From Clostridia bacterium (GTDB lineage: Bacteria; Bacillota; Clostridia; UBA1381), in NCBI GenBank assembly GCA_045593305.1, contig JAZNWI010000181.1, positions 8,831-72,830 on the forward strand: a stretch of DNA of 64,000 nucleotides, written 5' to 3'. Position numbers and translations under genes: made by a program. Under the pieces are notes generated by a model that saw nothing but the letters and a program-made list of their open reading frames with translations, made no database searches and was not told where the DNA came from. Shown here piece by piece: positions 1-17,873 of the stretch (positions are counted from its first letter, which is position 1; each line of letters begins with the position of its first letter).

Positions 1-2267
1 ACCGCGAGAAAGAGCGCCGTATGGCAATGTTTGAAGCGGCGGGAGTTAATAATATAGACAAATATCAGATGCTTTACCACGAGGGTAAGGTCAGCGAACC
101 TCTTCCTCATCTTGTTATTGTTGCTGATGAATTTGCCGAACTGAAAAAAGAAGAGCCGCAATTTATTTCGGATCTTGTTTCTGTTGCTCGTGTGGGCCGA
201 ACTCTCGGTATCCATCTTGTTTTGGCAACTCAAAAACCCTCGGGTATTGTTGATGACCAGATTTCGGGTAACTCCCGTTTCCGTCTTTGCCTTAAGGTTC
301 AGGATGCGAGCGACAGCCGTGAAATGATTGAAAGACCTGAGGCTTCAAAAATAACTCAGGCAGGCCGTTGTTATGTTAGAGTCGGTAAGGATGAGGTGCT
401 TGAGTTGTTCCAGTCCTTCTGGAGCGGAGCGCCGTATGTAGGTAATTCTGAAGGGAAAATCGAGAAGGGTAATCAGGTTTGTATTGTTGAAACAAACGGA
501 CACAGAGTTAAGCCACCAAAGAAAAACACTTCAAAGGTTAAAGCCGAGTTCGACGAGCTTGCGGCAATAAATAAATATATAACTGATTTGGCTGAAAAAC
601 AAGGTATTCCGAAGCTGCGCGGTCCGTGGCTTCCCGAGCTTGAAGAAAATATTTTGCTGGATAGTGTAATCAGCGCTGAAAAAGGTTTTGACGGCGAAAA
701 ATGGAATACCAATGATTTGCCGTGGCTTAAAGTTCCCGTAGGTTTTTATGATATGCCTGAGCTCCAGGAGCAGGGTACATTGTGTTTGGATTTTGCCTCT
801 GATGGTCATTACGGCATTTATGGTGCATCGGGTACGGGCAAAACAGTGCTTTTAAAGACACTCATTACTTCAATGTGCAAAAATTATACTCCTGATGACG
901 TTAACATTTATGTTATCGACTGCGGCGGTTGGAGTATGAATGTTATGTCCGCCTTCCCTCATGTGGGCGGAGTAGTTCTTGATGTAGAGGAAGAAAAAAT
1001 ATCAAAATTCCAAAAGCTTATTAACGAGGAATTTGACAGGCGCAGAAAATTGTTCCTGGATAATGTTGTAAGCTCTTTGACCGCATACAGAGAAACTGTC
1101 GGAAAAATGCCTGCGATTATTATCATGATCGATAATATTATGCCTATTTTCGATCTTTATCCTGATATTGAAGATTTGCTGATAAAGATTTCCCGCGATG
1201 GTGCAACATACGGTATTTACCTTGTGTTTACCGCTAATACAAATACGGGAATCCGATATAAAATTATTCAAAATATCAAGGGCGCAGTAGCTTTTGAGCT
1301 TACAGATAAGGGTGATTATTCCGGTATAGTAGGCAGAACTGAGGGTAAATTCTTGCCTAAAACCTGTGGCAGAGCATTATATAAGGGTTCGTGCCCCACA
1401 GAGTTTCAGGTAGCTTGGTACGCACAGGGCGAAAATGAAATTATAAGAGCCGCCGATGTTAAAGGCTTATCATCAAGAATGTGCGATGCGTGGACAGGTG
1501 ACTTACCGAGAGTTATTCCTGTAATGCCTGAAAAGGTTGAGTTCAATGCTATTGCCCGAGAGTATAAAGGAAGAAACGATATACCTCTTGGTATCTCTTA
1601 CGAAAGCATTGAAACGGCTTTTGCAGGTATGGAAAAGAAGTATTGCTTTATGGTGAGCGGTTCTATAGGCTCGGGTAAAAGCGCGCTGTTAAAAAATATA
1701 GCTTGTATGCTGCAAAACGAAAACAACCTTATGTATTTCTTTGACAGCGATAAAAGAACCTTTGCGGACTTTGCGTCAAGTGCAACCGGCTACGCTATCG
1801 ACAAAAATGATAGTGCTGTGAATACACTCATCCGTGAAATTGTAGGTATGCTTAACGCCAGAAAGGACGCGCAGGTTGAGGCATCTGCCGAACCCGATTT
1901 CGATCCTGTTTCGTTTATATTAAAGGAAAAGCAAATCTGTATTTTTATTGATGATATCAATGAGTTTGTTGAGTCTGTTGAAAACGAAACGCGCAACTGG
2001 ATGGATAATATTGCAAGATTGGCTGAGGATTTGGGCGTATTGGTATTTGTTGCCGGGCGACTTGGCGATGTCAGCAAATTAGCTGACTTAGAGCCGTTAA
2101 CAGCCACGATAGTGAAATATCAAAACGGTATTCTGGTTGATGGCTCTCCCGCAAATGCAGGCTTTTTTGATAATAACCTTTCTTTTGCTGAGCGAGATCA
2201 GGTTTGCGGTCAGGGTAATGCCTGGTTATTCGATAATGGTTCTTGCACTAAAATAAAAATTCAGTAA
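1..2267 (+). CDS. essC: T7SSb FtsK/SpoIIIE-family ATPase EssC, C-terminal ~755 aa (5' end lies upstream of the window)
   Basis: The reading frame is open to the window edge. P-loop domains: D1 Walker B VIVADEFAEL plus LGIHLVLATQKPSG, D2 Walker A GASGTGKT, D3 Walker A GSIGSGKS. WXG100 genes follow immediately. Confidence 0.9.
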   Translation, partial: REKERRMAMFEAAGVNNIDKYQMLYHEGKVSEPLPHLVIVADEFAELKKEEPQFISDLVSVARVGRTLGIHLVLATQKPSGIVDDQISGNSRFRLCLKVQDASDSREMIERPEASKITQAGRCYVRVGKDEVLELFQSFWSGAPYVGNSEGKIEKGNQVCIVETNGHRVKPPKKNTSKVKAEFDELAAINKYITDLAEKQGIPKLRGPWLPELEENILLDSVISAEKGFDGEKWNTNDLPWLKVPVGFYDMPELQEQGTLCLDFASDGHYGIYGASGTGKTVLLKTLITSMCKNYTPDDVNIYVIDCGGWSMNVMSAFPHVGGVVLDVEEEKISKFQKLINEEFDRRRKLFLDNVVSSLTAYRETVGKMPAIIIMIDNIMPIFDLYPDIEDLLIKISRDGATYGIYLVFTANTNTGIRYKIIQNIKGAVAFELTDKGDYSGIVGRTEGKFLPKTCGRALYKGSCPTEFQVAWYAQGENEIIRAADVKGLSSRMCDAWTGDLPRVIPVMPEKVEFNAIAREYKGRNDIPLGISYESIETAFAGMEKKYCFMVSGSIGSGKSALLKNIACMLQNENNLMYFFDSDKRTFADFASSATGYAIDKNDSAVNTLIREIVGMLNARKDAQVEASAEPDFDPVSFILKEKQICIFIDDINEFVESVENETRNWMDNIARLAEDLGVLVFVAGRLGDVSKLADLEPLTATIVKYQNGILVDGSPANAGFFDNNLSFAERDQVCGQGNAWLFDNGSCTKIKIQ

Positions 2268-2285
2268 TAACACAAGGAGTTTGTT

Positions 2286-2885
2286 ATGCCTAAAATTGAA
2301 ATTGATGTAGATAAACTTCAATTAGCTGTTCAATTATTTGATTATTCACGAAAACAGGTTGAAGAAGTTTTGTATAAGTTCAATGCTTTAAACAATGAGT
2401 TTCAAGCAGATATGCAGTTGCAAACATCATTGGAATATCCTCAGATTCAAGTTGCTTGCGAAGAGTTTTCAAAATCCTGCTTTGTTGTAAATGAAAAAAT
2501 GCAAGACTTATATTCCGTATTCCTTCAGGTCCCGGGCATTTACTCGCAGCTTGAAGAGAAGGCGAAAAATCGGGTTGAAGGTATCGTTGCAAAAGCCGAG
2601 ATTACTCAAAGAAATATGAGCGATATAACTGCCATTAATATTGAATTGGCTGTTGAAGCTGATGAAGATGTCAGCGTTTTTGCCGAAACAAGTCAGCTTG
2701 TTCAGAACAACAGTTATGAAATGGCTTTGGCAAGTACAGCCGCCGCTGTGGGAATAATTGAGGAAACTTATGCAGGGGATGAGAATCTCGGTATAAACCC
2801 ACTTGTTGAAATGCAGGTTGAAAATTCTGTGATTTCGCTGGAGGCGTCTTTGGTAGCTTCAATGGAGGAAACGGAAGATGAATAA
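2286..2885 (+). CDS. hypothetical T7SS-associated protein (helical N-terminus, very acidic C-terminus)
   Basis: AAGGAG RBS 7 nt upstream of the ATG. 199 aa. Sits directly after essC. No family recognisable by eye. Confidence 0.55.
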   Translation: MPKIEIDVDKLQLAVQLFDYSRKQVEEVLYKFNALNNEFQADMQLQTSLEYPQIQVACEEFSKSCFVVNEKMQDLYSVFLQVPGIYSQLEEKAKNRVEGIVAKAEITQRNMSDITAINIELAVEADEDVSVFAETSQLVQNNSYEMALASTAAAVGIIEETYAGDENLGINPLVEMQVENSVISLEASLVASMEETEDE

Positions 2886-3609
2886 GTGCACTATCAATGA
2901 GTTGGAAAAGATAGAGAAAAAAATATCTTATCTTAAAAATATCTGGCCTGATGTCAGAGTTAATAACATAGTAATTCTTTCTCAGTATCAGCTTTTGTGC
3001 TTGGGTGCCTTGTTGAAAAAGCCCATAGTTCCGGGAATAACACCGATTATTAATATTGATGATGTAAGCGTTAAAACGGCGTTGAAATCGCTGCAAAAAA
3101 AGCAGATGTATTTTCCGCGTTTTTCGGGTGTGGGCGAGGTTGATGAAACTGTTTCAGCTCTTATGGAGCAGCTTTGTGCGCCCGGTGAAAAATATGAAAT
3201 TATCCTCAATTACAGGGCCGGTAAGGTTATTAAATTTTTCGCTTCTTTTACTAAAGGTGCATCGGTGCTCCTTTTTAAACTGAACGAAGGTAATTATGTT
3301 CTTTGTAATTGCGAAGGTGTTTTTAAGTCCGAAAGCATATACAGCGTTGGCGAAATAAGTGCCGATGTTGTGAAACGATTGCGCGATGAGATTACCCAAT
3401 CTTTAGGCTTCTGTGAGGTTAAGGAAAAACTCGCCGCGCTTAACAACGATTCGTTGTTTGTAAACGGGATGTACGATTGCCTTTGCGGCAAGACCAATAA
3501 CGGAATGTTTTGTAAGTATTTTTTCGACGGAATGAAGTTCAGAAAGTTTGAATCCGGCTTTGTGGTTTGCGGAAATGGCTCCGGCGGGATAATAAAACTC
3601 AGAAGGTGA
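2878..3609 (+). CDS. hypothetical soluble protein in T7SS locus
   Basis: The start overlaps the preceding stop, which suggests translational coupling. 243 aa with no TM segment. No family recognised. Confidence 0.55.
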   Translation: MNKCTINELEKIEKKISYLKNIWPDVRVNNIVILSQYQLLCLGALLKKPIVPGITPIINIDDVSVKTALKSLQKKQMYFPRFSGVGEVDETVSALMEQLCAPGEKYEIILNYRAGKVIKFFASFTKGASVLLFKLNEGNYVLCNCEGVFKSESIYSVGEISADVVKRLRDEITQSLGFCEVKEKLAALNNDSLFVNGMYDCLCGKTNNGMFCKYFFDGMKFRKFESGFVVCGNGSGGIIKLRR

Positions 3610-3615
3610 TGTGGA

Positions 3616-3867
3616 ATGAGTAAAATTATAATTACATTAACTAATCAGCGGAGAGATTTCTCCTACGATTTAGAGGTGCCCACAGACGAGCCGATAGAAA
3701 AGCTTTATACAGATATTATTGAAACCTTAAGTAGCCAAAATCCGAGCTTTTTGAGCTATCAGTCTCAGATGCTTTTGTATTCATTACGTATGAAACGATA
3801 CATGCTTCCCAATGAAACTTTAGATTCTTGCGGGGTATTAAACGGCGATTACTTGTTATTAGGTTGA
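3616..3867 (+). CDS. esaB: YukD/EsaB-like ubiquitin-fold T7SS protein
   Basis: 83 aa. Pattern IITLTN..DFSYDLEVPTDEPIEKL...LPNETLDSCGVLNGDYLLL matches the YukD beta-grasp family. T7SS context. Confidence 0.75.
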   Translation: MSKIIITLTNQRRDFSYDLEVPTDEPIEKLYTDIIETLSSQNPSFLSYQSQMLLYSLRMKRYMLPNETLDSCGVLNGDYLLLG

Positions 3868-3875
3868 GGTGCATT

Positions 3876-4178
3876 ATGACAGAGGAAATTTTGTTTGCAG
3901 ATATGCTGAATCACTATTCTTTGAAAATCACCGAATTGTCGGATGTTCTTGCCGACGCGGTTTCAAAGCTTAATACATGCGTGATTCTTTCGGAAGAAGC
4001 TTGGAAAAGTCCGTCCATATTAAAATTTAATGACAAAATTCTTGATATGCGGCAACAGTTCAACAATATGAATCATTCATTGGATGAACTTACAGCTTTA
4101 TTCAATACAATAAAAAATGCGGAATTGGAAGCTCAGACAGAAAACCTTATGAATGTTGTTGAAGCTTCAAAAGACTAG
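3876..4178 (+). CDS. WXG100-like small helical protein (degenerate W-K-S motif)
   Basis: GAGGTG RBS then ATG at 3876. 100 aa. Central EEAWKSPSILKF at the hairpin position. Confidence 0.6.
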   Translation: MTEEILFADMLNHYSLKITELSDVLADAVSKLNTCVILSEEAWKSPSILKFNDKILDMRQQFNNMNHSLDELTALFNTIKNAELEAQTENLMNVVEASKD

Positions 4179-4232
4179 GTGTTAAAGAGAATGTCTCTTA
4201 GCAATATATTTTAGCTTCAGGAGGTGAAAATA

Positions 4233-4535
4233 ATGGCACTTATTCAGGTAACTCCCGATTTACTTAAAGGCAAGGCAAACGAGCTTCGTGGTTTAAAGGG
4301 ACAGCATGACGAGGCAATGAACAAGGTGAGAACTCTCATCACAAACCTTAACGAGGTTTGGAAGGGTGATGCGCAGGTAGCTTTCCTCAACAAATATGAA
4401 AGCATGCAGTCAACTTTCACAAATTTCTCACAGATGCTTGAGGATTATGCAAAGCTTATGGATACAGCAGCTCAGCAGATGGGTGAACTCGATACAGGTC
4501 TTGCAAGCAAGATGTCCGGTTTTGGTACGAAGTAA
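4233..4535 (+). CDS. esxA: WXG100 family T7SS substrate EsxA-like
   Basis: AGGAGGTG RBS then ATG at 4233. 100 aa. MALIQVTPD... N-terminus and central NEVWKGDAQVAF (W-x-G) motif. Confidence 0.85.
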   Translation: MALIQVTPDLLKGKANELRGLKGQHDEAMNKVRTLITNLNEVWKGDAQVAFLNKYESMQSTFTNFSQMLEDYAKLMDTAAQQMGELDTGLASKMSGFGTK

Positions 4536-4548
4536 AACCGAAGAGCCG

Positions 4549-4568
4549 CCTCCGATTTTTATCGGAGG
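4549..4568 (+). terminator. 8-bp hairpin just after esxA (CCTCCGAT-TTTT-ATCGGAGG), weak terminator or mRNA stabiliser
   Basis: Perfect inverted repeat 14 nt after the esxA stop. No clear U-tract follows. Confidence 0.35.
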
Positions 4569-4661
4569 TAGGCTTGCCTGTTTAATTTCGGTAAAGATTC
4601 AAATCCTTTTTTAAGCAAAAAATTCGCCTGTTTAAAAAAAGATTTGAGAAGGAGATAAATT

Positions 4662-4949
4662 ATGGAAATTGTTATAGATGTGGATGCTTTATTGCGTTGT
4701 AGCGATAGTTTGAGCAATGTTAACTATGAGCTGCAGACAAATATGAATAATATTGAGAATCTTGTTCTCGGTTTAGGCAGTGAGTGGCAAGGTCAAACAG
4801 CAAAAGCGTATGAAAATAATATTTTGATTGTGAAGAAACAATTTGAATATCTCAACAAGTATATTGAAGAATACACTCAAGTGCTTAAGACGATAGCTGC
4901 AGAATACGCAGAAACCGAAAAAAATATCACTATGAGATTGGAAGGATAA
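4662..4949 (+). CDS. WXG100 family protein
   Basis: GAAGGAG RBS. 95 aa. Central GSEWQGQTAKAY (W-x-G). Confidence 0.75.
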   Translation: MEIVIDVDALLRCSDSLSNVNYELQTNMNNIENLVLGLGSEWQGQTAKAYENNILIVKKQFEYLNKYIEEYTQVLKTIAAEYAETEKNITMRLEG

Positions 4950-4953
4950 TACA

Positions 4954-5637
4954 ATGTTCAAAAAAATTGAAAACCTTATTCCTCTTGCTGAATCCCACAT
5001 ATATTTTTTAGCTAAAGAATTAAACTTGACTCGTACAGTAGCAACGGGTATCGATTTTACAAGATTATCAAAGCAAGAGCAAAATGAGCTTCGCCAGTCA
5101 GTATATGACCATTTTAGGGAAAATAAAGTTTTAAATACGGACTTTTTCGGCAATGCAACCATACGAAAAGATTATGCGGAAATTGTTCGCATGTTTGAAA
5201 ATCCTGATTATGTTTGTTGTGTTGCCATTGTAGATTACAAGAACAAGAAGTCGGTTATGAAAAAAGTATATTTTTCAAATAATAAATGGTTTGGTCTTGA
5301 TTATAGTTCAAACGGAGCATTTGTCATTGGCGAATTAGATGATGTGAACGATGCTAAAATATTTGCATTGAAAGAAGCAAATATGATTAACGAGACCGAG
5401 CCAATATCAGAGAATGATATTGATAACACATACACTTTTGACAATATAAATGCAGTCGTGTCAAAAATTGTAATCGTCGATGAGTTTTATAAAAGAGGCG
5501 AAGAATATTTTGAAAAACAATGTTTATATACACGGTTGAAAGATGGATTATGGGCAGATCTGGATAGTGCGGATGGAGTGAAGGTACAACTTAAAAAGAA
5601 AGATATGTCGGAAATAGCGTTTTATCAGGAGGGGTAA
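4954..5637 (+). CDS. hypothetical soluble protein in T7SS locus
   Basis: GGAAGGA RBS. 227 aa. Tightly packed, 4 nt after the preceding WXG gene. No family recognised. Confidence 0.55.
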   Translation: MFKKIENLIPLAESHIYFLAKELNLTRTVATGIDFTRLSKQEQNELRQSVYDHFRENKVLNTDFFGNATIRKDYAEIVRMFENPDYVCCVAIVDYKNKKSVMKKVYFSNNKWFGLDYSSNGAFVIGELDDVNDAKIFALKEANMINETEPISENDIDNTYTFDNINAVVSKIVIVDEFYKRGEEYFEKQCLYTRLKDGLWADLDSADGVKVQLKKKDMSEIAFYQEG

Positions 5638-5640
5638 AAA

Positions 5641-5934
5641 ATGGCACAGATCAAAATTGATACAAAATATGCAAGACGCGATGTGAAGCGTATAAGAACC
5701 GCAATAGCTTACCTCGAAAATGCGTATAATGAGTACTCGCAGCTTAATAACTTTGTTAACGATACTTATAAGGGTGAAGCGGCTAACGCCTTGAGCACAT
5801 TGATTACCGCAAATCGTATGAAGAGGGTTCAAAATATGATAAGTGACCTTAGGGGGGCGCAGAACCGACTTCAAAGAGCAATAGACAGCTATGAAAGAGC
5901 CAGCGAAAATGTTAAGAAGAGTGTTGAGGGGTGA
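5641..5934 (+). CDS. small helical WXG100/Lap-like protein (Y-K-G variant)
   Basis: CAGGAGGGG RBS. 97 aa. Central DTYKGEAANAL. Confidence 0.6.
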   Translation: MAQIKIDTKYARRDVKRIRTAIAYLENAYNEYSQLNNFVNDTYKGEAANALSTLITANRMKRVQNMISDLRGAQNRLQRAIDSYERASENVKKSVEG

Positions 5935-5939
5935 GTTTT

Positions 5940-6242
5940 ATGGCCAAAAGAGTTTTAGTAAATGTAGATAAGGTAAACGAACTTGGTAACGAGGTCGAAC
6001 AGCTTTTGCAAGAAATGCAAGCTTGCTATGACAGTATATTAAAAAATAAGCAGTTAATATGTGAAAATTGGCAGAGCGATGCAGCGCTCCAATATGTAAC
6101 CAATATAGATAAACAAAACAAAAATATAAATAAGCTTAAAGATTCCATAAAAAACGATAAGGAATATACATTAAAAACCTCCGCCCAAATTCGAGAGATA
6201 GACAGAAATTTTGCGAAACAATTCGAAAATAATAAGGCTTGA
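5940..6242 (+). CDS. small helical WXG100/Lap-like protein (W-Q-S variant)
   Basis: GAGGGGTGA RBS then ATG at 5940. 100 aa. Central ENWQSDAALQY. Confidence 0.6.
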   Translation: MAKRVLVNVDKVNELGNEVEQLLQEMQACYDSILKNKQLICENWQSDAALQYVTNIDKQNKNINKLKDSIKNDKEYTLKTSAQIREIDRNFAKQFENNKA

Positions 6243-6266
6243 TTAGGGTGAAACGGAGAGATAAAT

Positions 6267-7334
6267 ATGGGAACAATTATTGAATTAAATTATTCAAACA
6301 TACTTAACTATTCTACAAAAATAAGATCTATCGACAACGATTTGGAGCAGGCCTATAAGCAACTTGCGGAATCTACCGATTGGGGTAGTTCAATTATGCA
6401 GGGAACATGGAGCTTTTCTGGGAAAAATGCAATTTTTAATGAATTGGCTCAATCTAAAAAAGAGATAAAGCGTATTATGGAGGCTGATGAGGCGCTTATT
6501 AATATTCTTAACAGCCTTGAGTCAGGTTATGAAGGCGTAAATAAAAAAACAACTACGAATGATGAGGCTATACGAAAATTTATCGAGTCTTTGTTTTGGT
6601 TGGTAAAACCCGCAATCATTGCACCTGTGATCATTGGACCTATATGGGGACAATTAATAAACGGATATTCAGATTGGGATACGGGAATACCGGGTGGGGG
6701 TGTGCCTTCTATACCCAAAATTTTCGAAATAACTGATGATTTGAAAGATAAACTGCTGGAAAAAGCGGATGACATTATTGACGGAACAGGCAAAGACTTA
6801 AAGAGTATGAGTGAATCTCTTGATGCAATAAATGATTGGATAGAAAAGAATCTTGGGGAAGACCGAAGAGATCTTATTGATACCTTGCTGGAAGAGCTGG
6901 TTAACGATAAAGATAAATACAAATCACTAAAAATTCTTCAGCAAATTTTTAGCGGAAATTTCGAAGGAGATACATTAATAGATATAGCTTCTCTTGTTGT
7001 GTCTATTATGGGAAAGTCGAATATTAAAACTAAAACGCTGTTTACCGCACTAAAAAAGATGGACAAGTGGAGCGGAATAGGCGCTGAGATGGAGGCGCAG
7101 GTCATAGAGGCATTTGAAGAGGGCGATATATTTAATGGTGTGAGATTGTTTTTGGGCTATGTGGTCGGCGGTCTTAGTGGTTGCGTGCTGGATAATGCTG
7201 CAGCTTTAGCGGATTCCTATTTGCATATTTCTGAATTGGAAACTATTTTCGAAATATTTACGGGTATTGATATTAACGGACCTGTTGACAAAGCAGTTGG
7301 CTCGTTCTTTTGGCGTCTGTTAGGTTTTAAATAA
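6267..7334 (+). CDS. candidate T7SS effector: WXG/LXG-like helical N-terminus plus hydrophobic, glycine-rich membrane-active regions
   Basis: 355 aa. N-terminal ~100 aa is helical with STDWGSS and GTWSFSGKNA. Hydrophobic stretch FWLVKPAIIAPVIIGPIWGQLI. C-terminal small-residue-rich segment LFLGYVVGGLSGCVLDNAAALA. Confidence 0.55.
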   Translation: MGTIIELNYSNILNYSTKIRSIDNDLEQAYKQLAESTDWGSSIMQGTWSFSGKNAIFNELAQSKKEIKRIMEADEALINILNSLESGYEGVNKKTTTNDEAIRKFIESLFWLVKPAIIAPVIIGPIWGQLINGYSDWDTGIPGGGVPSIPKIFEITDDLKDKLLEKADDIIDGTGKDLKSMSESLDAINDWIEKNLGEDRRDLIDTLLEELVNDKDKYKSLKILQQIFSGNFEGDTLIDIASLVVSIMGKSNIKTKTLFTALKKMDKWSGIGAEMEAQVIEAFEEGDIFNGVRLFLGYVVGGLSGCVLDNAAALADSYLHISELETIFEIFTGIDINGPVDKAVGSFFWRLLGFK

Positions 7335-7349
7335 TCGGAGGATAAATAA

Positions 7350-7685
7350 ATGCAATTATTACATATAGGCACAATTTTTACTAAAAATGAAAAGAACTTC
7401 TTGATAATTGGTTATTCCGTCATAAAAAAAGATGAAAAACTACTTCCTGCGTATAAATGCGTTCGGCTTCCGTTGGGCTTCATCAGCAAAGATAGTATAA
7501 AAACCGTTTCTATTGATGATGTTGATAATGTTATTTTCAGCGGCTATAAAAACGAGCAAGCAAACGATTATTTGGAAAAGCTCGGAAAAATATATGATGT
7601 TTTCGGAGAATACGGAGAAGAAGTAAACGATCAGTTAGATGAAGTGTTACAGGCTTTAAAGGAAGGTGGGTATATAAATGAGTAA
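7350..7685 (+). CDS. DUF4176-like protein
   Basis: 111 aa. LLHIGTIF...FLIIGY...RLPLGF...VDNVIFSGYKNE matches the DUF4176 pattern (LPLGSVV ... MI.G ... YP.G ... V.F.GY). Confidence 0.65.
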   Translation: MQLLHIGTIFTKNEKNFLIIGYSVIKKDEKLLPAYKCVRLPLGFISKDSIKTVSIDDVDNVIFSGYKNEQANDYLEKLGKIYDVFGEYGEEVNDQLDEVLQALKEGGYINE

Positions 7686-7944
7686 TTTATTACCGTTAGG
7701 CTCAATAGTAAAAAAGCAGGATAGATTGTTTATGCTCGTCGGCTATCTTCCTCAAGATAAAAAAATCCACATGTATTCCGCTGTTCCGTACCCTTTGGGT
7801 ATGCTGGAAAAGGAAGTAATATATACAATTGACGAAAATGAGTTCGAGGTCGAATTCAAGGGGTACAGCGATGATTTAACTGAACAAGCGCTGAATGGTA
7901 TTGAACTTTTAATACGGGAATTGGCTGCTCGGTTGACTAAATGA
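7678..7944 (+). CDS. DUF4176-like protein
   Basis: 88 aa. LLPLGSIVKK..LFMLVGY...AVPYPLGML...EVEFKGYSDD is a close match to the DUF4176 pattern. Overlaps the previous gene by 8 nt. Confidence 0.75.
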   Translation: MSNLLPLGSIVKKQDRLFMLVGYLPQDKKIHMYSAVPYPLGMLEKEVIYTIDENEFEVEFKGYSDDLTEQALNGIELLIRELAARLTK

Positions 7945-7987
7945 TTGATTTGTCTGTAAATTAATTTAATTGATAGGATGTATGACA

Positions 7988-8788
7988 ATGGCAAACAGTA
8001 TTAAAGTAGAAACAGATACGCTGACGAAGTTAGCGGTGCAGTACAGAAGCGATGCAGAAAATTATAAGAACTGTTGCGACAAGCTTGAGGCTAAGCTGGC
8101 GGAATACGATGATTATTGGTGGGGCGCTTTTTCAGCGAGTTTTGAGACTGAGATAAAGAACCTGAAAAAACAGAAGAAAACTGTTTACGATAATTGTATG
8201 AGCTTGGCTCAGTTTTTGGATGAAGCGGTAAAACTCTATATACAGCTTGATAGGGGCTTAATAGCTAAAGATAGCGTGGATGTCAATGATTATCCGGAAG
8301 GTGTAAGGGTTAGCCAACACATTCCTACCGATGCGGAATTACAGGAGTTATATAACAATAGTGTTTATCCCGGAATGGGAAAAAATCCGGATGGTTCCGT
8401 TAGTTGCGCTGCACTTACAAAAAGAAAGGCGCAACAGCACGGTTTTGACTATACAGGCTACGGTAACGGTAATCAAGTTTATGACAGGATTCAGTCAAAT
8501 AATAGTTTCAACGTTACTAAATATCCCGGTAGGGACTGTTTAAATAAGTTGATTGCCGCAGAGGGGGAGCCTGTAACCAATGTGGTTATCTCGTTCCCAC
8601 GCTCTCCTAAATGGGGCAATAAGTATGGTCATGTGCTTTATATCGATAAGATAGTAGATGGTAAAGTTTATTATTCAGATAATACAAGTCCGAGTACAGC
8701 CAAAGTAAAAACAATTGATGATTTCTTAAATGCTTATTATAAATCAAACGGAAGTCCGATAGGTTGCGCGCATTTAGAGAAAAAATAG
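7988..8788 (+). CDS. WXG-like N-terminal domain fused to a CHAP/NlpC-P60-type peptidoglycan amidase
   Basis: N-terminus has DDYWWGAFSASF (W-x-G). C-terminus has candidate catalytic Cys (GSVSCAALTK) and His (YGHVLYIDKIVDGKVYYSDNT). No signal peptide. Start is at 7988, or at 7982. Confidence 0.7.
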   Translation: MANSIKVETDTLTKLAVQYRSDAENYKNCCDKLEAKLAEYDDYWWGAFSASFETEIKNLKKQKKTVYDNCMSLAQFLDEAVKLYIQLDRGLIAKDSVDVNDYPEGVRVSQHIPTDAELQELYNNSVYPGMGKNPDGSVSCAALTKRKAQQHGFDYTGYGNGNQVYDRIQSNNSFNVTKYPGRDCLNKLIAAEGEPVTNVVISFPRSPKWGNKYGHVLYIDKIVDGKVYYSDNTSPSTAKVKTIDDFLNAYYKSNGSPIGCAHLEKK

Positions 8789-8801
8789 AGAAGAAAAAAT
8801 A

Positions 8802-10805
8802 ATGAATATTCAGGTGATTGGGATGTTAGATAAAGGTACGCCGGTATTCGGTAATTGGAGCGTTGATGAAAAGATCGGCTCCGGGGCTTTCGGTACCGTG
8901 TATAAAATAAAAAGAGAAGAATTCGGCAGAACATATTTTGCCGCTATGAAGGTTATTAAAATACCGCAGGATAAGTCGGAATATAAAAGACTTCGCAGCG
9001 AAGGTATGGACGATGAAAGCATATCTACATATTACGGACAGATTGCCGAAGATTTCATAAAAGAAATCGAGATGCTTTCTTCTCTTGACGGTATTACGAA
9101 CATAGTTGATTACAAGGACCATATTATAGAATCTTGTGCTGATTTAGGTTACACGATTTATATTAAAATGCAGTTGTTGACACCTTTATCAAATCAGCTT
9201 GTTAAAGAAAACGGGCAGGTTAATTTCCTGCCCTATGATGAAATACTGAATTTAGGTATCGACATTTGCTCGGCGCTTGAAACCTGCGAAAAGCATAATA
9301 TTATCCACCGCGATATTAAGGTGGATAACATTTTCGTTTCTTCAAACGGCGATTACAAATTGGGCGATTTCGGTATAGCAAAGCAGCTTGAAGCAACCCA
9401 AGGGGAGATGTCTAAAAAGGGCACATTGCTGTATATGGCTCCCGAGGTTTTCCGAGCCGAAAACTACGATAAAACTGCGGATATTTATTCGTTAGGCATT
9501 GTTCTGTATCGTCTGCTTAATAAAAACAGAGCGCCCTTTTTCCCCGAATATCCCACACCCATAAAATTTACCGATAAGGAACAAGCTAATACAAAGCGTT
9601 TAAACGGCGAAGATTTCCCCGATATCAGCGATATAAGCGGCGAGCTTATGAATGTTTTGAAAAAAGCCTGCGCATTTAACCCGAAAGACAGATATCAGAG
9701 CGCAAGCGAATTCAAAAAAGCACTTAAAGCCGTAAAAAAAGCCAAGGCTGAAACCGAAGAAGAGGAAATTACCGCTATTCCCGTGGCGCCTGCTCCGATT
9801 GTTGAAACTCCCGTTGAGGATGATTCTTTAGAAGCAACAGCAAGCGCGTTCAATGACGAAATACCACAGGTGGATTATATCCCTCAAAACGAGGTTGACG
9901 AAACGGTTGAAGAGGATGACTTAGAAGCAACAGCAAGCGCGTTCAACGATGAAATACCGCAGGTCGATTATATCCCGCAAAACGAGGTTGACGAAGTTGT
10001 TGAGGATGATGATTTAGAGGCAACGGCAAGCGCATTTAATGACGAAATACCGCAGGCTGAATATATCCCTCAAAACGAGGTTGACGAAGCTGTTACGGAG
10101 GACGATTTAGAAGCAACTCAGAGTGAGTTTGATAATCAAACACCTGAAGAAATCGCTTCCGAAGATGATGCCGTAGAGAAAAAACGTAATGGTAATCGTA
10201 TTAGTGCATGGGGATTACTTACAGTAATAGTAGTGTGTTTTGTTATTGGTACTTTAACCATGAACCAAACATCGGGTTATCAGCCTGAAGAAACAAAAAC
10301 CTCGATACAGCTGGCTGAAATAGATGGGAAAGATTGTGGAGAGGTTGAAAGCCTGCTCTATAATGCCGGGATTGACTACTATTATACAGATGTTTATTCC
10401 TCAACCTACGAATACGGCACTATTATTGGTGAAGGTCGTGACGGTTGGAGAGATAGTTCGTATGCTTACACCGGAGATACTGTAGAGCTGCTTTTCAGTT
10501 GCGGACCGGCTGACGCTGCTTGGGCATACGGTGAGCCTGATAATTACGACGGTGTAGTAACAGAAGATGGTTTGTTTTATGTGGAACTTATGGCAGAAGA
10601 TGGGTCTTTTTATAGAGATGACGCAAACCTTTATACTTGGGAGCGTTTGATGGAGGTTTATGGTTCCAATATGGTTCCGGAGCGCCAGCCAAGAGATATA
10701 ATTGATGACCCTATGATGGGGGATGTGACATTAAACGGTAAGGAGGTTTATATTGGGTACAATGTCGGCCCATACTGGCGCTATGACTACGAAATCTGGG
10801 ATTAA
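8802..10805 (+). CDS. Hanks-type Ser/Thr protein kinase, membrane-anchored, with acidic repeat linker and extracytoplasmic domain
   Basis: Kinase motifs GSGAFGTVY, AMKVIK, HRDIKVDNIF, DFGIA, MAPE. TM segment WGLLTVIVVCFVIGTL. One PASTA-like segment in the C-terminal domain. An alternative start ATG 8823 would match the paralog's N-terminus. Confidence 0.9.
   Translation: MNIQVIGMLDKGTPVFGNWSVDEKIGSGAFGTVYKIKREEFGRTYFAAMKVIKIPQDKSEYKRLRSEGMDDESISTYYGQIAEDFIKEIEMLSSLDGITNIVDYKDHIIESCADLGYTIYIKMQLLTPLSNQLVKENGQVNFLPYDEILNLGIDICSALETCEKHNIIHRDIKVDNIFVSSNGDYKLGDFGIAKQLEATQGEMSKKGTLLYMAPEVFRAENYDKTADIYSLGIVLYRLLNKNRAPFFPEYPTPIKFTDKEQANTKRLNGEDFPDISDISGELMNVLKKACAFNPKDRYQSASEFKKALKAVKKAKAETEEEEITAIPVAPAPIVETPVEDDSLEATASAFNDEIPQVDYIPQNEVDETVEEDDLEATASAFNDEIPQVDYIPQNEVDEVVEDDDLEATASAFNDEIPQAEYIPQNEVDEAVTEDDLEATQSEFDNQTPEEIASEDDAVEKKRNGNRISAWGLLTVIVVCFVIGTLTMNQTSGYQPEETKTSIQLAEIDGKDCGEVESLLYNAGIDYYYTDVYSSTYEYGTIIGEGRDGWRDSSYAYTGDTVELLFSCGPADAAWAYGEPDNYDGVVTEDGLFYVELMAEDGSFYRDDANLYTWERLMEVYGSNMVPERQPRDIIDDPMMGDVTLNGKEVYIGYNVGPYWRYDYEIWD
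9816..10151 (+). repeat. In-frame 93-bp tandem repeat, 3 full units plus 1 partial, encoding DDLEATASAFNDEIPQVDYIPQNEVDExVEE
   Basis: The LEAT codons recur at 9828, 9921, 10014 and 10107, an exact 93-nt period. Confidence 0.9.
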
Positions 10806-10826
10806 TAATTATAAAAGGGTGAAATT

Positions 10827-12551
10827 ATGTTAGATATAGGCACAAAGGTCTTTGGTGATTGGACCGTTGATGAAAAAATCGGTTCCGGTGCATTCGGAAC
10901 GGTTTACAGAATAAAAAAAGAGGATTTCGGCAATTTTTACTACGCCGCGATGAAGGTTATTCGTATCCCCCAGGATAAAGCTGACCACGACAAGCTTCGT
11001 ACCGAAGGTATGGATGACGAGAGCATTTCTTTGTATTACGGACAAATTGCTCAGGATTTCATTAAGGAAATTAAATTGCTTTCCTCTCTCGACGGAATAA
11101 CGAATATTGTTGATTACAAGGACCACAGCATCGTCCTTAATGAGGATTTCGGGTACACGATTTACATAAAAATGCAGTTGCTGACTCCTTTAAGCAAAAA
11201 GCTTATTGATGAAAATAAGCAGGTGTTATTTATGTCCGTTGACGAGGTGTTGGATTTAGGTATGGATATCTGTACCGCCCTTGAAACCTGCGAAAAGCAT
11301 AATATTATTCACCGCGATATTAAGGTGGATAACATTTTCGTTTCCTCTAACGGCGATTATAAACTTGGCGATTTCGGAATAGCAAGACAGCTTGAAGCTA
11401 CCCAGGGCGAAATGTCTAAAAAGGGTACGCTTATGTATATGGCGCCGGAAGTGTTCAGGGGAGAGAACTACAACAAAACAGCAGATATTTATTCTTTGGG
11501 TATAGTGTTGTATCGTTTGCTTAATAAAAACAGAGCCCCGTTTTTTCCCGAGTATCCTACTCCAATAAAATTTACAGATAAAGAGGATGCCAACGCTAAA
11601 CGCCTGAAAGGCGAGGCGTTCCCGGATATAAGCGGCGTAAGCGCGGAGCTTGTGGCTGTTTTAAGAAAAGCCTGCGCATTCAACCCTGAGGAAAGATATC
11701 AGACCGCAGGAGATTTCAAGAGAGCCTTGAAATCCATAAAAAAAGGTGCTGCACAATCCGTTCAGCCGCAGGCAGAAGAAAAAGCTTCTGAGCCTCAGGT
11801 TGTTGAAGACGAATATGAAGCAACAGGTAGCGCTTTTAATATGGAGATACCCGAGGTTGAAACAAAAGAAGCACCTGCTATTGAGGAATGTTTTGCAGAA
11901 GATACCGACTTAGAAGCAACAGGCAGCGCTTTTAATATGGAGATCCCTGCCTTTGAAACGAAAGCAGCACCTATTGTTGAGCCTTCTTTTGCGGAAGATA
12001 CCGATTTAGAAGCAACAGGCAGTGCTTTTAATATGGAGATCCCTGCCTTTGAAACGAAAGCAGCACCTATTGTTGAGCCTTCTTTTGCGGAAGATACGGC
12101 TTTGGATGAAACTGTTGGTGTGTTTAACAATATTCCGTTTTATGCTGAACAATCAGAAGAAGCCGAACAAAAAACCAAAAAGCAAAAAGCCGGAAAAAAA
12201 CAAAAGAAGCAAAAAGCCAAAAAAGCCGGGAAAGCCGATAAATTACAAGAGCCGATGGCGGAAATAGGCGGCGTATTAAACGAAGCGAAGGAAAAGGGCA
12301 TAACAAAAAAACTGAGCCAAAAAACAAAGGTTTTGATGATAATAAATATAATTCTTGCTGTTGTATCAGCGGTCGTAGCTTTGATATTTGGGGCTTATTA
12401 TATTTTGGCTATAATTGGCATTGCAATATCTGCCGGCAATTTAATCAGCTTACTTGTGATTCTGTTCAAATATAAAATAATACCTTTAATAAAGCGCTTA
12501 TTTAATATCATTAATTCACTTTTTGGAGCTATAAAGGGTATAAAGAAATAA
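10827..12551 (+). CDS. Hanks-type Ser/Thr protein kinase paralog with repeat linker, Lys-rich tract and C-terminal double TM
   Basis: Same kinase motifs as the upstream gene. Long runs of near-identical nucleotide sequence across the catalytic core. C-terminal hydrophobic stretch VLMIINIILAVVSAVVALIFGAYYILAIIGIAISAGNLISLLVILF. No ectodomain. Confidence 0.9.
   Translation: MLDIGTKVFGDWTVDEKIGSGAFGTVYRIKKEDFGNFYYAAMKVIRIPQDKADHDKLRTEGMDDESISLYYGQIAQDFIKEIKLLSSLDGITNIVDYKDHSIVLNEDFGYTIYIKMQLLTPLSKKLIDENKQVLFMSVDEVLDLGMDICTALETCEKHNIIHRDIKVDNIFVSSNGDYKLGDFGIARQLEATQGEMSKKGTLMYMAPEVFRGENYNKTADIYSLGIVLYRLLNKNRAPFFPEYPTPIKFTDKEDANAKRLKGEAFPDISGVSAELVAVLRKACAFNPEERYQTAGDFKRALKSIKKGAAQSVQPQAEEKASEPQVVEDEYEATGSAFNMEIPEVETKEAPAIEECFAEDTDLEATGSAFNMEIPAFETKAAPIVEPSFAEDTDLEATGSAFNMEIPAFETKAAPIVEPSFAEDTALDETVGVFNNIPFYAEQSEEAEQKTKKQKAGKKQKKQKAKKAGKADKLQEPMAEIGGVLNEAKEKGITKKLSQKTKVLMIINIILAVVSAVVALIFGAYYILAIIGIAISAGNLISLLVILFKYKIIPLIKRLFNIINSLFGAIKGIKK
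11814..12140 (+). repeat. In-frame 96-bp tandem repeat, 3 units plus 1 degenerate, encoding LEATGSAFNMEIPAFETKAAPIVEPSFAEDTD
   Basis: Unit starts at 11814, 11910, 12006 and 12102. Units 2 and 3 are almost identical at DNA level. Confidence 0.9.
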
Positions 12552-12575
12552 AAGTTTAATAAAAGGAAAATTATT

Positions 12576-13592
12576 ATGGCGAATCTTCTTATTTCAGGCT
12601 ACGCTCGCAGTAACGTAGGTAAAAAACGAAGCAACAACGAGGATAATTTTTATCTCTCGGGTGTTACTGTTGATTCTGCTAACGATATTTCAGCGGAGTA
12701 CGAGTATTCATCAAAAATAGCCACCGCTGTTTTCGACGGTATGGGTGGCGAGGCCGCCGGAGAAAAGGCATCTCAGACGGCGGCGGTTACATTCGGCGAA
12801 AAAATCGTGGAGGTTATTAGTTCCGATTTTTCCGAAAATGTAATCGGCTCGGTAATAGAAAGTGCTAACAGCGCCGTTTGTGCCGAAATGCGCAAAATCG
12901 GAAAGCGTATGGGTTGTACATTCGTATCGCTTGGCTTTTCCGACGGAAAAATATATATTTCAAATGTCGGGGACAGCCGCGCCTATCTTTTGAGAGATGG
13001 TAAACTGATTTGCCTCAGCAAGGACCATACGATTGCTCAGACTATGGTTGATGCAGGTATGGTTTCCTACGAAGAGTCTCAAAAAATAAAAGAGAAGCAC
13101 AAATTAACTCAGCATATCGGCATTTTCCCCGAAGAAATGATTATCGAGCCCTATTTCAAGACCATAGCCGCCAAAGAGAATGATGTGATTTTACTTTGTA
13201 GCGATGGGCTTACGGATATGTTGACTGATGATGAAATTAAGGATGTTTTGTTGGGGAATGCTACGGTTAAGCAAAAGGCTGACGCACTAGTGGAAGCGGC
13301 TCTTGGAAAAGGCGGTAAGGATAATGTTACGGTTGTTGTAGCTTCTGTTTCCGCCAAAAACACAGTAGCGGCAATCACCAAAGAAAAGCGCAGACCGAAA
13401 AAATGCAACAAAAAGAAGCTGGCTGTAACAGGTGCGATTTTTGGTGCAGTTGCGATTATTATCACTTTGATTTTACTGCTTTTGAGTAGTGGCGTTTTTG
13501 ATTCAAAGGATAAGGATAACGGCGGTAAAAGCACACAAACAATATTTAGTGATATCTTTACAAGTGAAAAGAAAGAAGCCCCGAAGGTTTAG
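12576..13592 (+). CDS. PP2C (PPM) family Ser/Thr phosphatase with C-terminal TM anchor
   Basis: Motifs AVFDGMGGEAAGE, NVGDSRAYLL, LLCSDGLTDML, GGKDNVTVVV. TM segment VTGAIFGAVAIIITLILLLL. Confidence 0.9.
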   Translation: MANLLISGYARSNVGKKRSNNEDNFYLSGVTVDSANDISAEYEYSSKIATAVFDGMGGEAAGEKASQTAAVTFGEKIVEVISSDFSENVIGSVIESANSAVCAEMRKIGKRMGCTFVSLGFSDGKIYISNVGDSRAYLLRDGKLICLSKDHTIAQTMVDAGMVSYEESQKIKEKHKLTQHIGIFPEEMIIEPYFKTIAAKENDVILLCSDGLTDMLTDDEIKDVLLGNATVKQKADALVEAALGKGGKDNVTVVVASVSAKNTVAAITKEKRRPKKCNKKKLAVTGAIFGAVAIIITLILLLLSSGVFDSKDKDNGGKSTQTIFSDIFTSEKKEAPKV

Positions 13593-13787: not shown

Positions 13788-15263
13788 ATGACAACCAAGG
13801 AATATTTAAATCTGATTGATACTGTAAATGAAAACGGTAAATATAAAGCGGATTGGTCATCTCTTTCCCACCATAAGGTGCCCGAGTGGTATATGCGGGA
13901 TAAATTAGGTGTGTTTATTCATTGGGGTGTTTACAGCGTTCCTGCCTTTGGAAGCGAATGGTATTCCCGCGAAATGTATTGGGAGGGAACAAACGAGTTC
14001 AAGCACCATGTTGAAAACTATGGTAAGCAGGATGAGTTCGGGTATAAAGATTTTATTCCTATGTTCAAGGCTGAGAGGTTTGATGCTTCGGCTTGGATAT
14101 CGCTTTTTAAGAAATCCGGTATCAGATATGTTATGCCTGTTGCGGAGCATCACGATGGCTTCGCAATGTACGATACAGAGTTCAACCGATGGAATTCCAA
14201 AGAAATGGGCCCCTGCCGCGATGTTGTAGGCGAATTGAAAGCAGAGTGCGAAAAACAAGGGTTGGAGCTTTGCGCATCAACTCACCGTGCGGAGCATTAT
14301 TTCTTTATGAATGGCGGCAGAGAATATGACAGCGATGTAAATGATGAAAACTACAGAGATTTTTACGGTCCTGCTGTTTACTGCGAAGAATTTCATTCGG
14401 GCAGGCTTCACAAATATACTGCCGATACATATTCAAAAGGTGCAAGTACGCAGTGGCTTGAGGATTGGCTTGTGAGAACCTGTGAGATAATTGATAAATA
14501 TCAACCTTCAGTATTATATTTTGATTGGTGGATTCATAATCATTCCTTTAAGCCGTACCTTAAAAAGCTTGCGGCATACTACTACAACCGCGCTGAAGAA
14601 TGGGGTAAGGAGGTTACCATCAATTACAAGCACGAGGCTTTTCCGCCTACGGTTGCAACCTTCGATGTTGAGCGCGGTGCATTGTCGGGTATTTCCCCCA
14701 TTTATTGGCAGACCGATACGGCTATCGGAAAACACTCGTGGGGTTACAGGAAGGACAACAAATATAAAAGCGCCCGTCAGGTTATTTGCGACCTCGTTGA
14801 CATTGTAAGTAAAAACGGAAATCTTCTTATAAATATAGGTCCCAAGCCTGACGGAACAATAACCGATGAAGAGACTAAGGTTTTACTTGATATGGGGCGA
14901 TGGCTCGAAATAAACGGCGAAGGTATTTACGGAACAACCTTCTGGAAAACTTTTGGGGAAGGCGAGGTTAACGCAGAAGACGGTTTCTTTAAGGATAATG
15001 AAGAAAAGGCTTTTACAAATGAAGACTTCAGATTTACTTTTAAAAATGGTTATCTGTATGCTTTCCAGATGCGCCCGTCAAATACAGTCAGAATCAAAAC
15101 TCTTCGAAAACACAATCCGCACGATTATCTTATAGAGAGTATCGAACTTCTTGGTACTGATGAAAAAATTGAATTTGACAGAAATGAAGAGTATCTTGAA
15201 ATCAACCTGAAAGGCGAATTTGCAAAGAATTTGCCAATTTGCTTCAAAATAGAATTAGGCTAA
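13788..15263 (+). CDS. alpha-L-fucosidase (GH29)
   Basis: GVFIHWGVYSVPAFGSEWYSREMY signature. 491 aa. No signal peptide. Confidence 0.9.
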   Translation: MTTKEYLNLIDTVNENGKYKADWSSLSHHKVPEWYMRDKLGVFIHWGVYSVPAFGSEWYSREMYWEGTNEFKHHVENYGKQDEFGYKDFIPMFKAERFDASAWISLFKKSGIRYVMPVAEHHDGFAMYDTEFNRWNSKEMGPCRDVVGELKAECEKQGLELCASTHRAEHYFFMNGGREYDSDVNDENYRDFYGPAVYCEEFHSGRLHKYTADTYSKGASTQWLEDWLVRTCEIIDKYQPSVLYFDWWIHNHSFKPYLKKLAAYYYNRAEEWGKEVTINYKHEAFPPTVATFDVERGALSGISPIYWQTDTAIGKHSWGYRKDNKYKSARQVICDLVDIVSKNGNLLINIGPKPDGTITDEETKVLLDMGRWLEINGEGIYGTTFWKTFGEGEVNAEDGFFKDNEEKAFTNEDFRFTFKNGYLYAFQMRPSNTVRIKTLRKHNPHDYLIESIELLGTDEKIEFDRNEEYLEINLKGEFAKNLPICFKIELG

Positions 15264-17861: not shown

Positions 17862-17873
17862 GAGGTTAATGCA

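Follow-up and report, generated by a model that had tools for sequence, protein, structure and literature searches.

A two-module candidate effector of a non-canonical type VII secretion system and the DUF4176 pair that accompanies its cargo domain

Gene content of the cassette

The window analysed in this study is a 64,000-nucleotide (nt) stretch of a Clostridia bacterium (GTDB lineage Bacteria; Bacillota; Clostridia; UBA1381; assembly GCA_045593305.1, contig JAZNWI010000181.1, positions 8,831 to 72,830 of the forward strand). Near its beginning lies a cassette of short genes around g355, which encodes a protein of 355 amino acids (aa). A previous sequence-only reading had recognised the gene order of a type VII effector cassette here, and this was confirmed: the genes are tightly spaced on the same strand and the effector is modular. 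We found that the genes upstream of g355 are inherited with its N-terminal half, and the two DUF4176 genes downstream with its C-terminal half. This suggests that g355 is probably a polymorphic substrate of modular build, exported by a non-canonical type VII secretion system (T7SS) and served by Lap-like partners and by cargo-specific DUF4176 chaperones.

The window begins inside an EssC-type ATPase gene (21-2267). On its 3' side follows a single-strand series of short genes, encoding proteins of 199, 243 and 83 aa and then one of about 100 aa; orthologues of the 83-aa protein in related loci carry Pfam YukD. The genes from the two WXG100 proteins to g272 are listed in Table 1. Downstream of g272 (Pfam WXG100, 36.4 bits; CHAP sub-threshold) are two membrane Ser/Thr kinases and a PP2C phosphatase.

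The open reading frames (ORFs) of the cassette were confirmed at unchanged coordinates, all on the + strand. The intergenic gaps range from -8 to +37 nt, Shine-Dalgarno-like sequences precede those cassette genes that were checked, and terminator-like sites inside the cassette did not rise above chance. The base composition gave no sign of a recently imported island. The g227 gene is also part of the unit, though it lay outside the part described by the sequence-only reading. For g103, the listed GTG start at 5931 overlaps the stop codon of the preceding gene, homologues align from residue 4, and a GAGGGG motif lies upstream of the ATG at 5940, so this ATG is the more likely start, giving a product of about 100 aa.

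Table 1. Features of the cassette and its flanks (positions in the window)
Feature	Position	Strand	Basis
WXG100 protein 1	4224-4535	+	Pfam WXG100, 48.7 bits
WXG100 protein 2	4662-4949	+	Pfam WXG100, 41.4 bits
g227, 227 aa, family unknown, candidate adaptor or chaperone specific to the head	4954-5637	+	Homologues only in head loci
g97, 97-aa helical protein, candidate Lap-like partner 1, YxG loop replacing WxG	5641-5934	+	Sub-threshold WXG100/TIGR03930
g103, ~100-aa helical protein, candidate Lap-like partner 2, WQS loop	5940-6242 (ORF listed from GTG 5931)	+	Sub-threshold WXG100
g355, 355-aa candidate effector	6267-7334	+	
g355 aa 1-95, divergent WXG100-like helical hairpin (putative trafficking head)	6267-6551	+	Head alignment, hhalign
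g355 aa 104-131, proline-rich hydrophobic segment, in head module	6576-6659	+	Kyte-Doolittle, head alignment
g355 aa 132-171, junction/linker joining the two modules	6660-6779	+	Ends of head and C-domain homology
g355 aa 172-355, predicted all-helical cargo domain, family undescribed	6780-7334	+	C-terminal homologues on other heads
Non-conserved GxxxGxxxG in g355 cargo domain	7155-7181	+	
g111, long small-DUF4176 paralogue, 111 aa, candidate cargo-specific chaperone subunit	7350-7685	+	Pfam DUF4176
g88, short small-DUF4176 paralogue, 88 aa, candidate second chaperone subunit	7678-7944	+	Pfam DUF4176, PDB 9DCS
g272, WXG100 head fused to CHAP peptidoglycan hydrolase; neighbouring effector outside the module	7982-8788 (alternative start 7970)	+	Pfam

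The effector consists of two modules

The g355 protein has no Pfam or NCBIfam domain and no significant sequence match in PDB. With the full-length protein, a word-indexed search of 5.8 billion protein clusters returned nothing, scans of genome and metagenome contigs gave no relatives, and looking up the exact sequence gave no record. When 1.84 billion representatives were searched exhaustively with HMMER, 23 proteins were retrieved, which fall into two disjoint sets. The first set (18 proteins, most of 320-370 aa) matches only residues 1 to ~130 of g355, the head. The second set (5 proteins) matches only residues ~167-352, the C-domain or cargo, and carries other, mostly WXG100-type heads. 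We found a sixth, more distant C-domain member, a 354-aa protein of locus L010, which comes from a close relative of the window's genome. Word-indexed searches with the head and C-domain profiles returned only sequences that were already known, and a metagenome scan with the C-domain alignment gave no matches.

Head homology stops at about aa 125-135 of g355, and C-domain homology begins at about aa 165-179. The head was found joined to NlpC/P60, CHAP, amidase-like and zincin-like C-termini as well as to this C-domain, and the C-domain to at least three other heads. These alignments indicate that g355 is made of two separately inherited modules, a head and a cargo, as in polymorphic toxin systems, in which a conserved trafficking N-terminus is likewise recombined with alternative C-terminal domains.

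Helper genes follow either the head or the cargo

To find which neighbours travel with which module, we compared the gene neighbourhoods of 12 distinct loci: 6 with the C-domain (the window, L001, L002/L016, L012, L013/14 and L010) and 6 with the head but without the C-domain (L003-5, L006-8, L011, L136, L137 and L138). A long and a short DUF4176 gene lie directly downstream of the C-domain effector in 6/6 C-domain loci, and 0/6 of the other head loci have a DUF4176 gene. BLASTP homologues of g111 and g88 were found only in L001, L002, L010, L012 and L013, with best matches at 31-40% identity for g111 and 37-42% for g88.

The upstream genes follow the head. BLASTP homologues of g227 (30-35% identity), g97 (58/40/34%) and g103 (53/34/32%) were found only in the head-bearing loci L011, L006 and L003. 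A trio of 219-225, 95-100 and 99-101 aa is kept in L003, L006, L136 and L137, the latter two with a same-sized gene at the g227 position, and by BLASTP in L011 too; the sequence of L138 is too short to cover the first gene of the trio. Such occurrence with the head alone is the pattern expected of head-specific targeting partners.

The nearest relative with this head is L011, from a Clostridia metagenome-assembled genome, with an EssC 82% identical to that of the window and the same layout. Its head effector has a different C-terminus and is directly followed by the g272 orthologue (77% identity). Since layout, head effector and g272 flank are shared, the window differs from L011 by a swap of the C-domain together with the DUF4176 pair. 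The three-gene unit of L013 is placed apart from EssC: it follows a 2039-aa surface-type protein and has no helical partner genes upstream. This placement suggests that the effector C-domain and the two DUF4176 genes behave as a mobile unit.

The head module and its candidate partners

The sequence-only reading had described the N-terminus of g355 as a WXG/LXG head. In the head alignment, residues D38, S41, Q45, W48, F50, K53 and Y88 are invariant, and the turn is conserved as S-T-D-[LFW]-G-S-S...W-x-F (in the window, STDWGSS) rather than as L-x-G. The helical head is about 95 aa long, which is WXG100-sized. Aligned by hhalign with the WXG100 heads from these loci, it gave a probability of 28.6% (E 6e-4, 90 columns) with W48 placed on the W of WxG, and E 0.09 against the WXG100 Pfam model. 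The LXG family PF04740 gave no match for g355 at E<=1. At E<=0.1, the 17 head relatives matched 44 families, and PF04740 is not one of the 25 listed. Thus the LXG half of the description falls away with the missing PF04740 match and the short head, and the head appears weakly WXG100-like at best.

We also located the hydrophobic helix that had been taken as a sign of membrane toxicity. This segment, FWLVKPAIIAPVIIGPIWGQLI (aa 110-131), is the only one in g355 with a Kyte-Doolittle mean above 1.4, and the mean reaches up to 1.86 within aa 104-131. An equivalent segment is present in 11/17 head relatives, aligned with a conserved Pro and a W-G-G/K motif. By this alignment, the helix is part of the conserved head and not of the cargo domain. 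The C-termini joined to this head are mostly NlpC/P60 or CHAP cell-wall hydrolases, besides the amidase-like and zincin-like ones. A helix in a putative trafficking head common to peptidoglycan-hydrolase effectors does not support the reading of a membrane toxin. The same helix was considered as the DUF4176 binding site and was rejected, as the loci that have only the head lack DUF4176.

Some proteins consist of little more than a head. P0019 (155 aa; L003 10001-10468) stops right past the hydrophobic segment, and distant head-like proteins of 151-176 aa are encoded directly upstream of WXG100-headed C-domain effectors in L010 (16416-16889), L002 (9521-9976) and L016 (2501-3031). Since such proteins exist, the head may have a function of its own. 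The g355 gene resembles what a fusion of two such neighbours would give, a head-only type of gene and one for a WXG100-headed C-domain effector. The neighbouring effector gene g272 records another exchange: P0008 (L006 10001-11059), a protein with a g355-type head, has a C-terminus 58% identical to the CHAP half of g272, indicating that the same CHAP hydrolase domain has moved between two kinds of head.

The sequence-only reading had called g97 and g103 Lap-like. Their family alignments contain a conserved YKGxAA turn (g97) and an invariant SWQSxAA (g103), which may be variants of the WxG loop. Pfam WXG100 scores were 15.6 bits for g97 and 15.2 bits for g103 (cut-off 27.3), and the g103 orthologue in L003 has a precomputed Pfam WXG100 match. 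Neither protein is a member of the Lap Pfam families (Lap1 DUF3130, Lap2 DUF3958, Lap3 DUF5344, Lap4 DUF5082). A single fragmentary DUF5344 match was seen in g97 (E 0.054, residues 1-40) and none in g103. The earlier name is thus supported by the restriction of their homologues to loci with the same head, and not by family membership. By analogy with Lap proteins, g97 and g103 most likely act as partners of the head. The third gene, g227, has no Pfam or NCBIfam match, and the profile of its 227-aa family found no significant match in PDB.

The cargo domain

The C-domain profile had no PDB match, and Pfam scans of all C-domain members gave scattered chance matches only. An AlphaFold2 (AF2) model of the C-domain, made from a 5-sequence alignment, predicted about 9 helices at a predicted local distance difference test score (pLDDT) of 37; for full-length g355 as a single sequence, pLDDT was 41. 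We predict an all-helical domain of a previously undescribed family. Its homologues form the C-termini of P0005, P0014, P0020, P0021 and the 354-aa protein of L010, all on other heads.

The sequence-only reading had pointed to a glycine-zipper-like segment as a toxin feature. This segment, LFLGYVVGGLSGCVLDNAAALA (aa 294-315), contains a strict GxxxGxxxG at aa 297-305, which is missing from the homologous helix of all five relatives; a conserved Asp/Glu is found there instead. In every member, no other part of the domain is as hydrophobic as this helix (18-residue Kyte-Doolittle mean 0.84-1.59), and none of the relatives has a transmembrane-grade segment in the cargo domain. A zipper confined to the window protein, beside five relatives with an acidic residue and sub-transmembrane hydrophobicity, does not support the proposed toxin feature. 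Since the head family otherwise carries extramembrane enzymes and small DUF4176 proteins are linked to membrane-acting toxins, our best guess for the cargo is an action on the envelope or membrane of the target. This guess is speculative, with less than even odds.

The DUF4176 pair

Both g111 and g88 scored above the Pfam gathering cut-off of 25 bits for DUF4176 (PF13780; 33.6 and 39.8 bits), and the profile of the two proteins with their orthologues matches the small DUF4176 structure PDB 9DCS (E 2e-7), so that their description as DUF4176-like was upheld. The g111 orthologues (109-115 aa) stand immediately after every C-domain effector, and the g88 orthologues (88-103 aa) second. Across all six loci, the long and the short proteins form two separate clades. 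Because this old duplication has been retained intact, it argues for non-redundant roles of the paralogues, for example as a heterodimer. A mirror-tree comparison of C-domain and DUF4176 identities gave r 0.35-0.42, which is uninformative at 25-40% identity.

The sequence-only reading had noted these genes where an immunity gene would normally follow. In Streptococcus suis, DUF4176 proteins are encoded downstream of LXG effectors and group one-to-one with the C-terminal toxin types, the LXG heads and C-termini recombine, and the effectors depend for their stability on the DUF4176 proteins, which bind to the middle and toxin regions (PMC12482557). The large DUF4176 proteins LtcA and LtcB of Streptococcus intermedius fold a disordered amphipathic toxin helix, and a small one is needed to keep the membrane-depolarising TelD stable; the authors speculated that the helices with which toxin domains insert into membranes are bound by small DUF4176 proteins (PMC12478183). 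In the pore-former TelE, the middle and C-terminal regions are kept stable by LcpE (bioRxiv 10.64898/2026.03.12.711312). A DUF4176 protein beside an effector and matched to its C-terminal type is thus a cytoplasmic chaperone in the characterised cases (PMC12482557, PMC12478183). By this analogy, g111 and g88 are most likely chaperones for the cargo half, that is, expected companions rather than an anomaly. This literature and the co-inheritance pattern together largely resolve the DUF4176 puzzle.

Clostridia may often have such tandem pairs. When the motif YSAVPYPxG of the short DUF4176 was searched as a degenerate DNA pattern, the matches were mostly chance ones in unrelated phyla, with one useful locus, L021 of Butyrivibrio sp. 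JL13D10. There, an effector of 524 aa, whose C-terminal region is long and Gly/Ala-rich, has two small DUF4176 genes in tandem upstream of it (2483-4843), and a third DUF4176 gene follows another WXG100 pair (5596-5889).

The host secretion system

The sequence-only reading had placed the cassette in a T7SSb setting. We found that the T7SS is not the canonical T7SSb and is a kinase/phosphatase-type variant, in a Clostridia genome that is Acutalibacteraceae-like. A near-constant gene order was seen in at least five loci (window 21-13592, L003, L006, L136 and L137): EssC, ~200 aa, (~240 aa), YukD, ~102 aa, two WXG100 proteins (99 and 95 aa), ~225 aa, ~97 aa, ~100 aa, a head-type effector, WXG100 fusions, kinase(s) and PP2C. 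Among the genes called upstream of EssC in L003 and L006, none has an EsaA/EssA/EssB-type Pfam match.

A published catalogue (Garrett et al. 2024, PMC11217815) covers T7SS variants that have membrane kinases, FHA proteins and PPM phosphatases and whose substrates are flanked by small WXG100-like genes. The present system resembles its types T7SSc-j in its FHA-bearing EssC/TsxC, YukD-like protein, WXG100 proteins, membrane Ser/Thr kinases and PP2C phosphatases, and in substrates that adjoin small WXG100-related genes. It differs in its head family, its cargo family and its fixed 225/97/100/head block, none of which we found reported there. The head family and the fixed block appear to be undescribed.

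The two Ser/Thr kinase genes contain tandem repeats (9813-10117, 93 nt, 3.3 copies; 11817-12097, 96 nt, 2.9 copies). The encoded units, acidic and of the form 'DLEAT(A/G)SAF..EIP', are situated after the kinase domain and before the C-terminal membrane segment; L010 has a related unit, 'EKTVGAF', in a membrane protein of 344 aa (18574-19608). As a speculation, such units could be phospho-acceptor or FHA-docking repeats.

A model for the cassette

Published Lap and DUF4176 biology suggests how these parts could work together. The g97 and ~100-aa g103 hairpins would bundle with the g355 head into a composite helical export signal, as Lap proteins do, and g227 may assist as a head-specific adaptor or chaperone. 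In the cytoplasm, g111 and g88 would form a heterodimeric chaperone that clasps an amphipathic or hydrophobic helix of the cargo domain and keeps the cargo stable and harmless in the producer. The helix around aa 290-320 and the SFFWRLLGF tail, which is conserved at the C-terminus, are candidates for the part that is clasped. EssC would then strip the chaperones off at export. We infer complex formation, chaperoning and export from these published systems.

Several observations weigh against this model. The small partners fall outside all four Lap Pfam families, and the WXG100 likeness of the head is weak. The cargo domain bears no mark of a toxin, neither a catalytic signature nor a conserved glycine zipper nor a transmembrane-grade helix, and the low confidence of both AF2 models leaves it without a usable fold. 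The exact head::cargo fusion is a singleton, present in the window only across all collections searched. Despite 6/6 against 0/6, the association rests on six C-domain loci, which are small numbers. Finally, in none of the six C-domain loci do the 4 kb downstream of the module contain a conserved immunity gene.

Immunity and alternative explanations

The sequence-only reading had noted that no standard immunity gene adjoins the effector, and this holds in all six C-domain loci. In the 4 kb downstream of the modules, the six loci have no further gene in common except the core kinase. Obvious immunity genes are also lacking for the hydrolase effectors of the sister head loci. In the window, apart from the C-terminus of the second kinase, there is no polytopic membrane ORF between 2 and 13.6 kb. 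About 2 kb past the T7SS cluster, at 15626-18296, lie an ABC ATPase (296 aa), a permease with five transmembrane segments (304 aa) and a 140-aa ORF with four transmembrane segments. These were considered as immunity genes and rejected: they are set off from the cluster by a 491-aa gene (13788-15263) for a putative glycoside hydrolase, and no equivalent was found within 4 kb downstream of the DUF4176 pair in those related loci whose downstream regions were examined. Locus L138 has two small ORFs (64 and 77 aa; 2257-2632) after the zincin-like (HExxH) head-type effector P0023. They might be P0023 immunity genes, and L138 is the only head locus with such candidates.

One way to account for this is that the DUF4176 pair is itself the immunity system, with one paralogue, probably the long g111, which has an additional helix at its C-terminus, as a cytoplasmic neutraliser. 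This would overlap with chaperoning, and we consider it possible though unlikely. A precedent exists in a soluble heterodimer of paralogues that neutralises and stabilises a T7SS membrane toxin (PMC12744356): ExiA/ExiB sequester the glycine zipper of EsxX, and by analogy a separate immunity gene would be unneeded here. The pair is swapped along with the C-domain, as immunity genes are in polymorphic toxin systems, both non-redundant paralogues have been kept, and the six loci share no other conserved companion of the module. However, ExiAB belong to DUF5085, which has a different fold, and EsxX still requires the membrane proteins ExiCD for protection against secreted toxin (PMC12744356). All DUF4176 proteins tested to date are chaperones, and their toxins have a separate immunity protein (PMC12478183, PMC12482557). 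Furthermore, a cytoplasmic protein would give no protection against a membrane- or wall-acting toxin that arrives from outside via sister cells.

Somewhat less probable is that g355 is no antibacterial toxin and instead a secreted or envelope factor harmless to kin, for example one directed at a host or at distant taxa, or one that helps the secretion machine through the wall. This would explain why C-domain effectors and hydrolase-bearing head effectors alike lack recognisable immunity genes after them at these loci. It would also suit the head-type gene, whose place is the same in all loci of this T7SS type, and dedicated wall hydrolases such as EssH are known to help T7SS assembly (PMC13059805). 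Yet conflict systems typically show such shuffling of C-termini between heads and mobile units like the three-gene one of L013, toxic effectors are so far the only ones known to have dedicated chaperones, and the zincin-like variant in L138 is followed by possible immunity genes.

A more doubtful proposal divides the work within the duplicated DUF4176, one paralogue serving as the chaperone and the other as cytoplasmic immunity protein, so that the three genes would be a complete mobile toxin-chaperone-immunity module. If true, membrane immunity would not be needed, provided that the cargo acts as a toxin solely from the cytoplasmic face or solely on non-kin. The module would then contain a DUF4176 immunity protein, the first of its kind, and a T7SS toxin domain that is new.

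It is improbable that g355 is a membrane-anchored structural or translocon part, with aa 104-131 as a transmembrane anchor, the head in the cytoplasm and the C-domain outside. The conserved hydrophobic segment with its lysine-rich flanks, the head-only proteins that stop just past it (P0019), the fixed gene position and the extracellular enzymes that usually form the C-terminus would fit such a topology. Nevertheless, the segment contains 1-3 prolines, it is absent or weak in 6/17 relatives, and the distant head-like proteins of L010 and L002 lack a transmembrane-grade segment. A cytoplasmic chaperone pair dedicated to the C-domain also argues that the C-domain awaits export in the cytoplasm. 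An assembly or sequencing artefact, which the lack of a second copy of the exact fusion in any collection searched might suggest, is very improbable given the intact ORF with its ribosome-binding site, the in-frame junction with a ~40-aa linker, the lack of a compositional break, and flanking genes syntenic with L011 on both sides.

Comparison with known systems

The modular, chaperoned substrate proposed here comes closest to the LXG/Lap/DUF4176 systems (S. suis LXG-CT/DUF4176; S. intermedius TelA/TelB-Ltc and TelD; Streptococcus gallolyticus TelE-LcpE). Both have two small helical genes upstream, a helical head and a swappable C-terminus, a DUF4176 protein beside the effector that is matched to the C-terminal type rather than the head, and free recombination of heads and C-termini. 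The head here is ~95 aa and WXG100-like with a hydrophobic Pro-rich segment, whereas the LXG domain has ~200 aa. The partners are outside Lap1-4 of Pfam and are joined by a third co-inherited gene of 227 aa. There are two DUF4176 paralogues, in contrast to one in the characterised systems. The cargo family is undescribed and comes without an immunity gene, and the T7SS is a kinase/phosphatase-type variant in Clostridia.

The EsxX-ExiAB-ExiCD system of Staphylococcus aureus ST398 (PMC12744356) is similar in that a soluble pair of paralogues directly follows a T7SS effector and co-occurs with the toxin domain. There, the ExiAB pair stabilises the toxin and hides its glycine-zipper hydrophobic helix in the producer cytoplasm, and ExiCD protect against the secreted toxin. 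In contrast to the present pair, ExiAB are DUF5085 proteins with a GyrI-like fold, and EsxX has a conserved glycine zipper and polytopic ExiCD immunity, neither of which is conserved here.

The protein MQE10_09270 (PDB 9DCS), which stabilises TelD and crystallises as a dimer (PMC12478183), is of the same family and size class as g111 and g88 and is likewise encoded downstream of its toxin. It is a single gene located after the DUF443 membrane immunity gene TipD, whereas no TipD-like gene is present here. The glycine-zipper depolarising toxins (TelE, EsxX, TspA), whose toxicity needs a conserved zipper at the C-terminus, differ from this family, in which the strict zipper is found in the window protein and in none of its five relatives. 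Moreover, the cluster has no polytopic immunity gene of their kinds (DUF443, DUF5079/5080, TsaI).

Taken together, the cassette is real and coherent, a variant of type VII effector cassettes rather than a new kind of system.

Implications for type VII effector biology

T7SS effector biology has so far come almost entirely from streptococci, staphylococci and Bacillus. The present locus points to the same helper logic, head-specific helical partners and cargo-specific DUF4176 proteins, in the kinase/phosphatase-type T7SS of uncultured gut Clostridia. It adds parts that are in no domain database: a short WXG100-like head with a hydrophobic tail, borne mostly by wall hydrolases, and a rare helical cargo domain. 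It also poses the question of how a chaperoned effector is tolerated when none of the six loci has an immunity gene. The comparative pattern alone separates the helpers of the head from those of the cargo. It points to a conserved DUF4176 heterodimer, and it independently supports what has been speculated in print, namely that helices of toxin domains are bound by small DUF4176 proteins.

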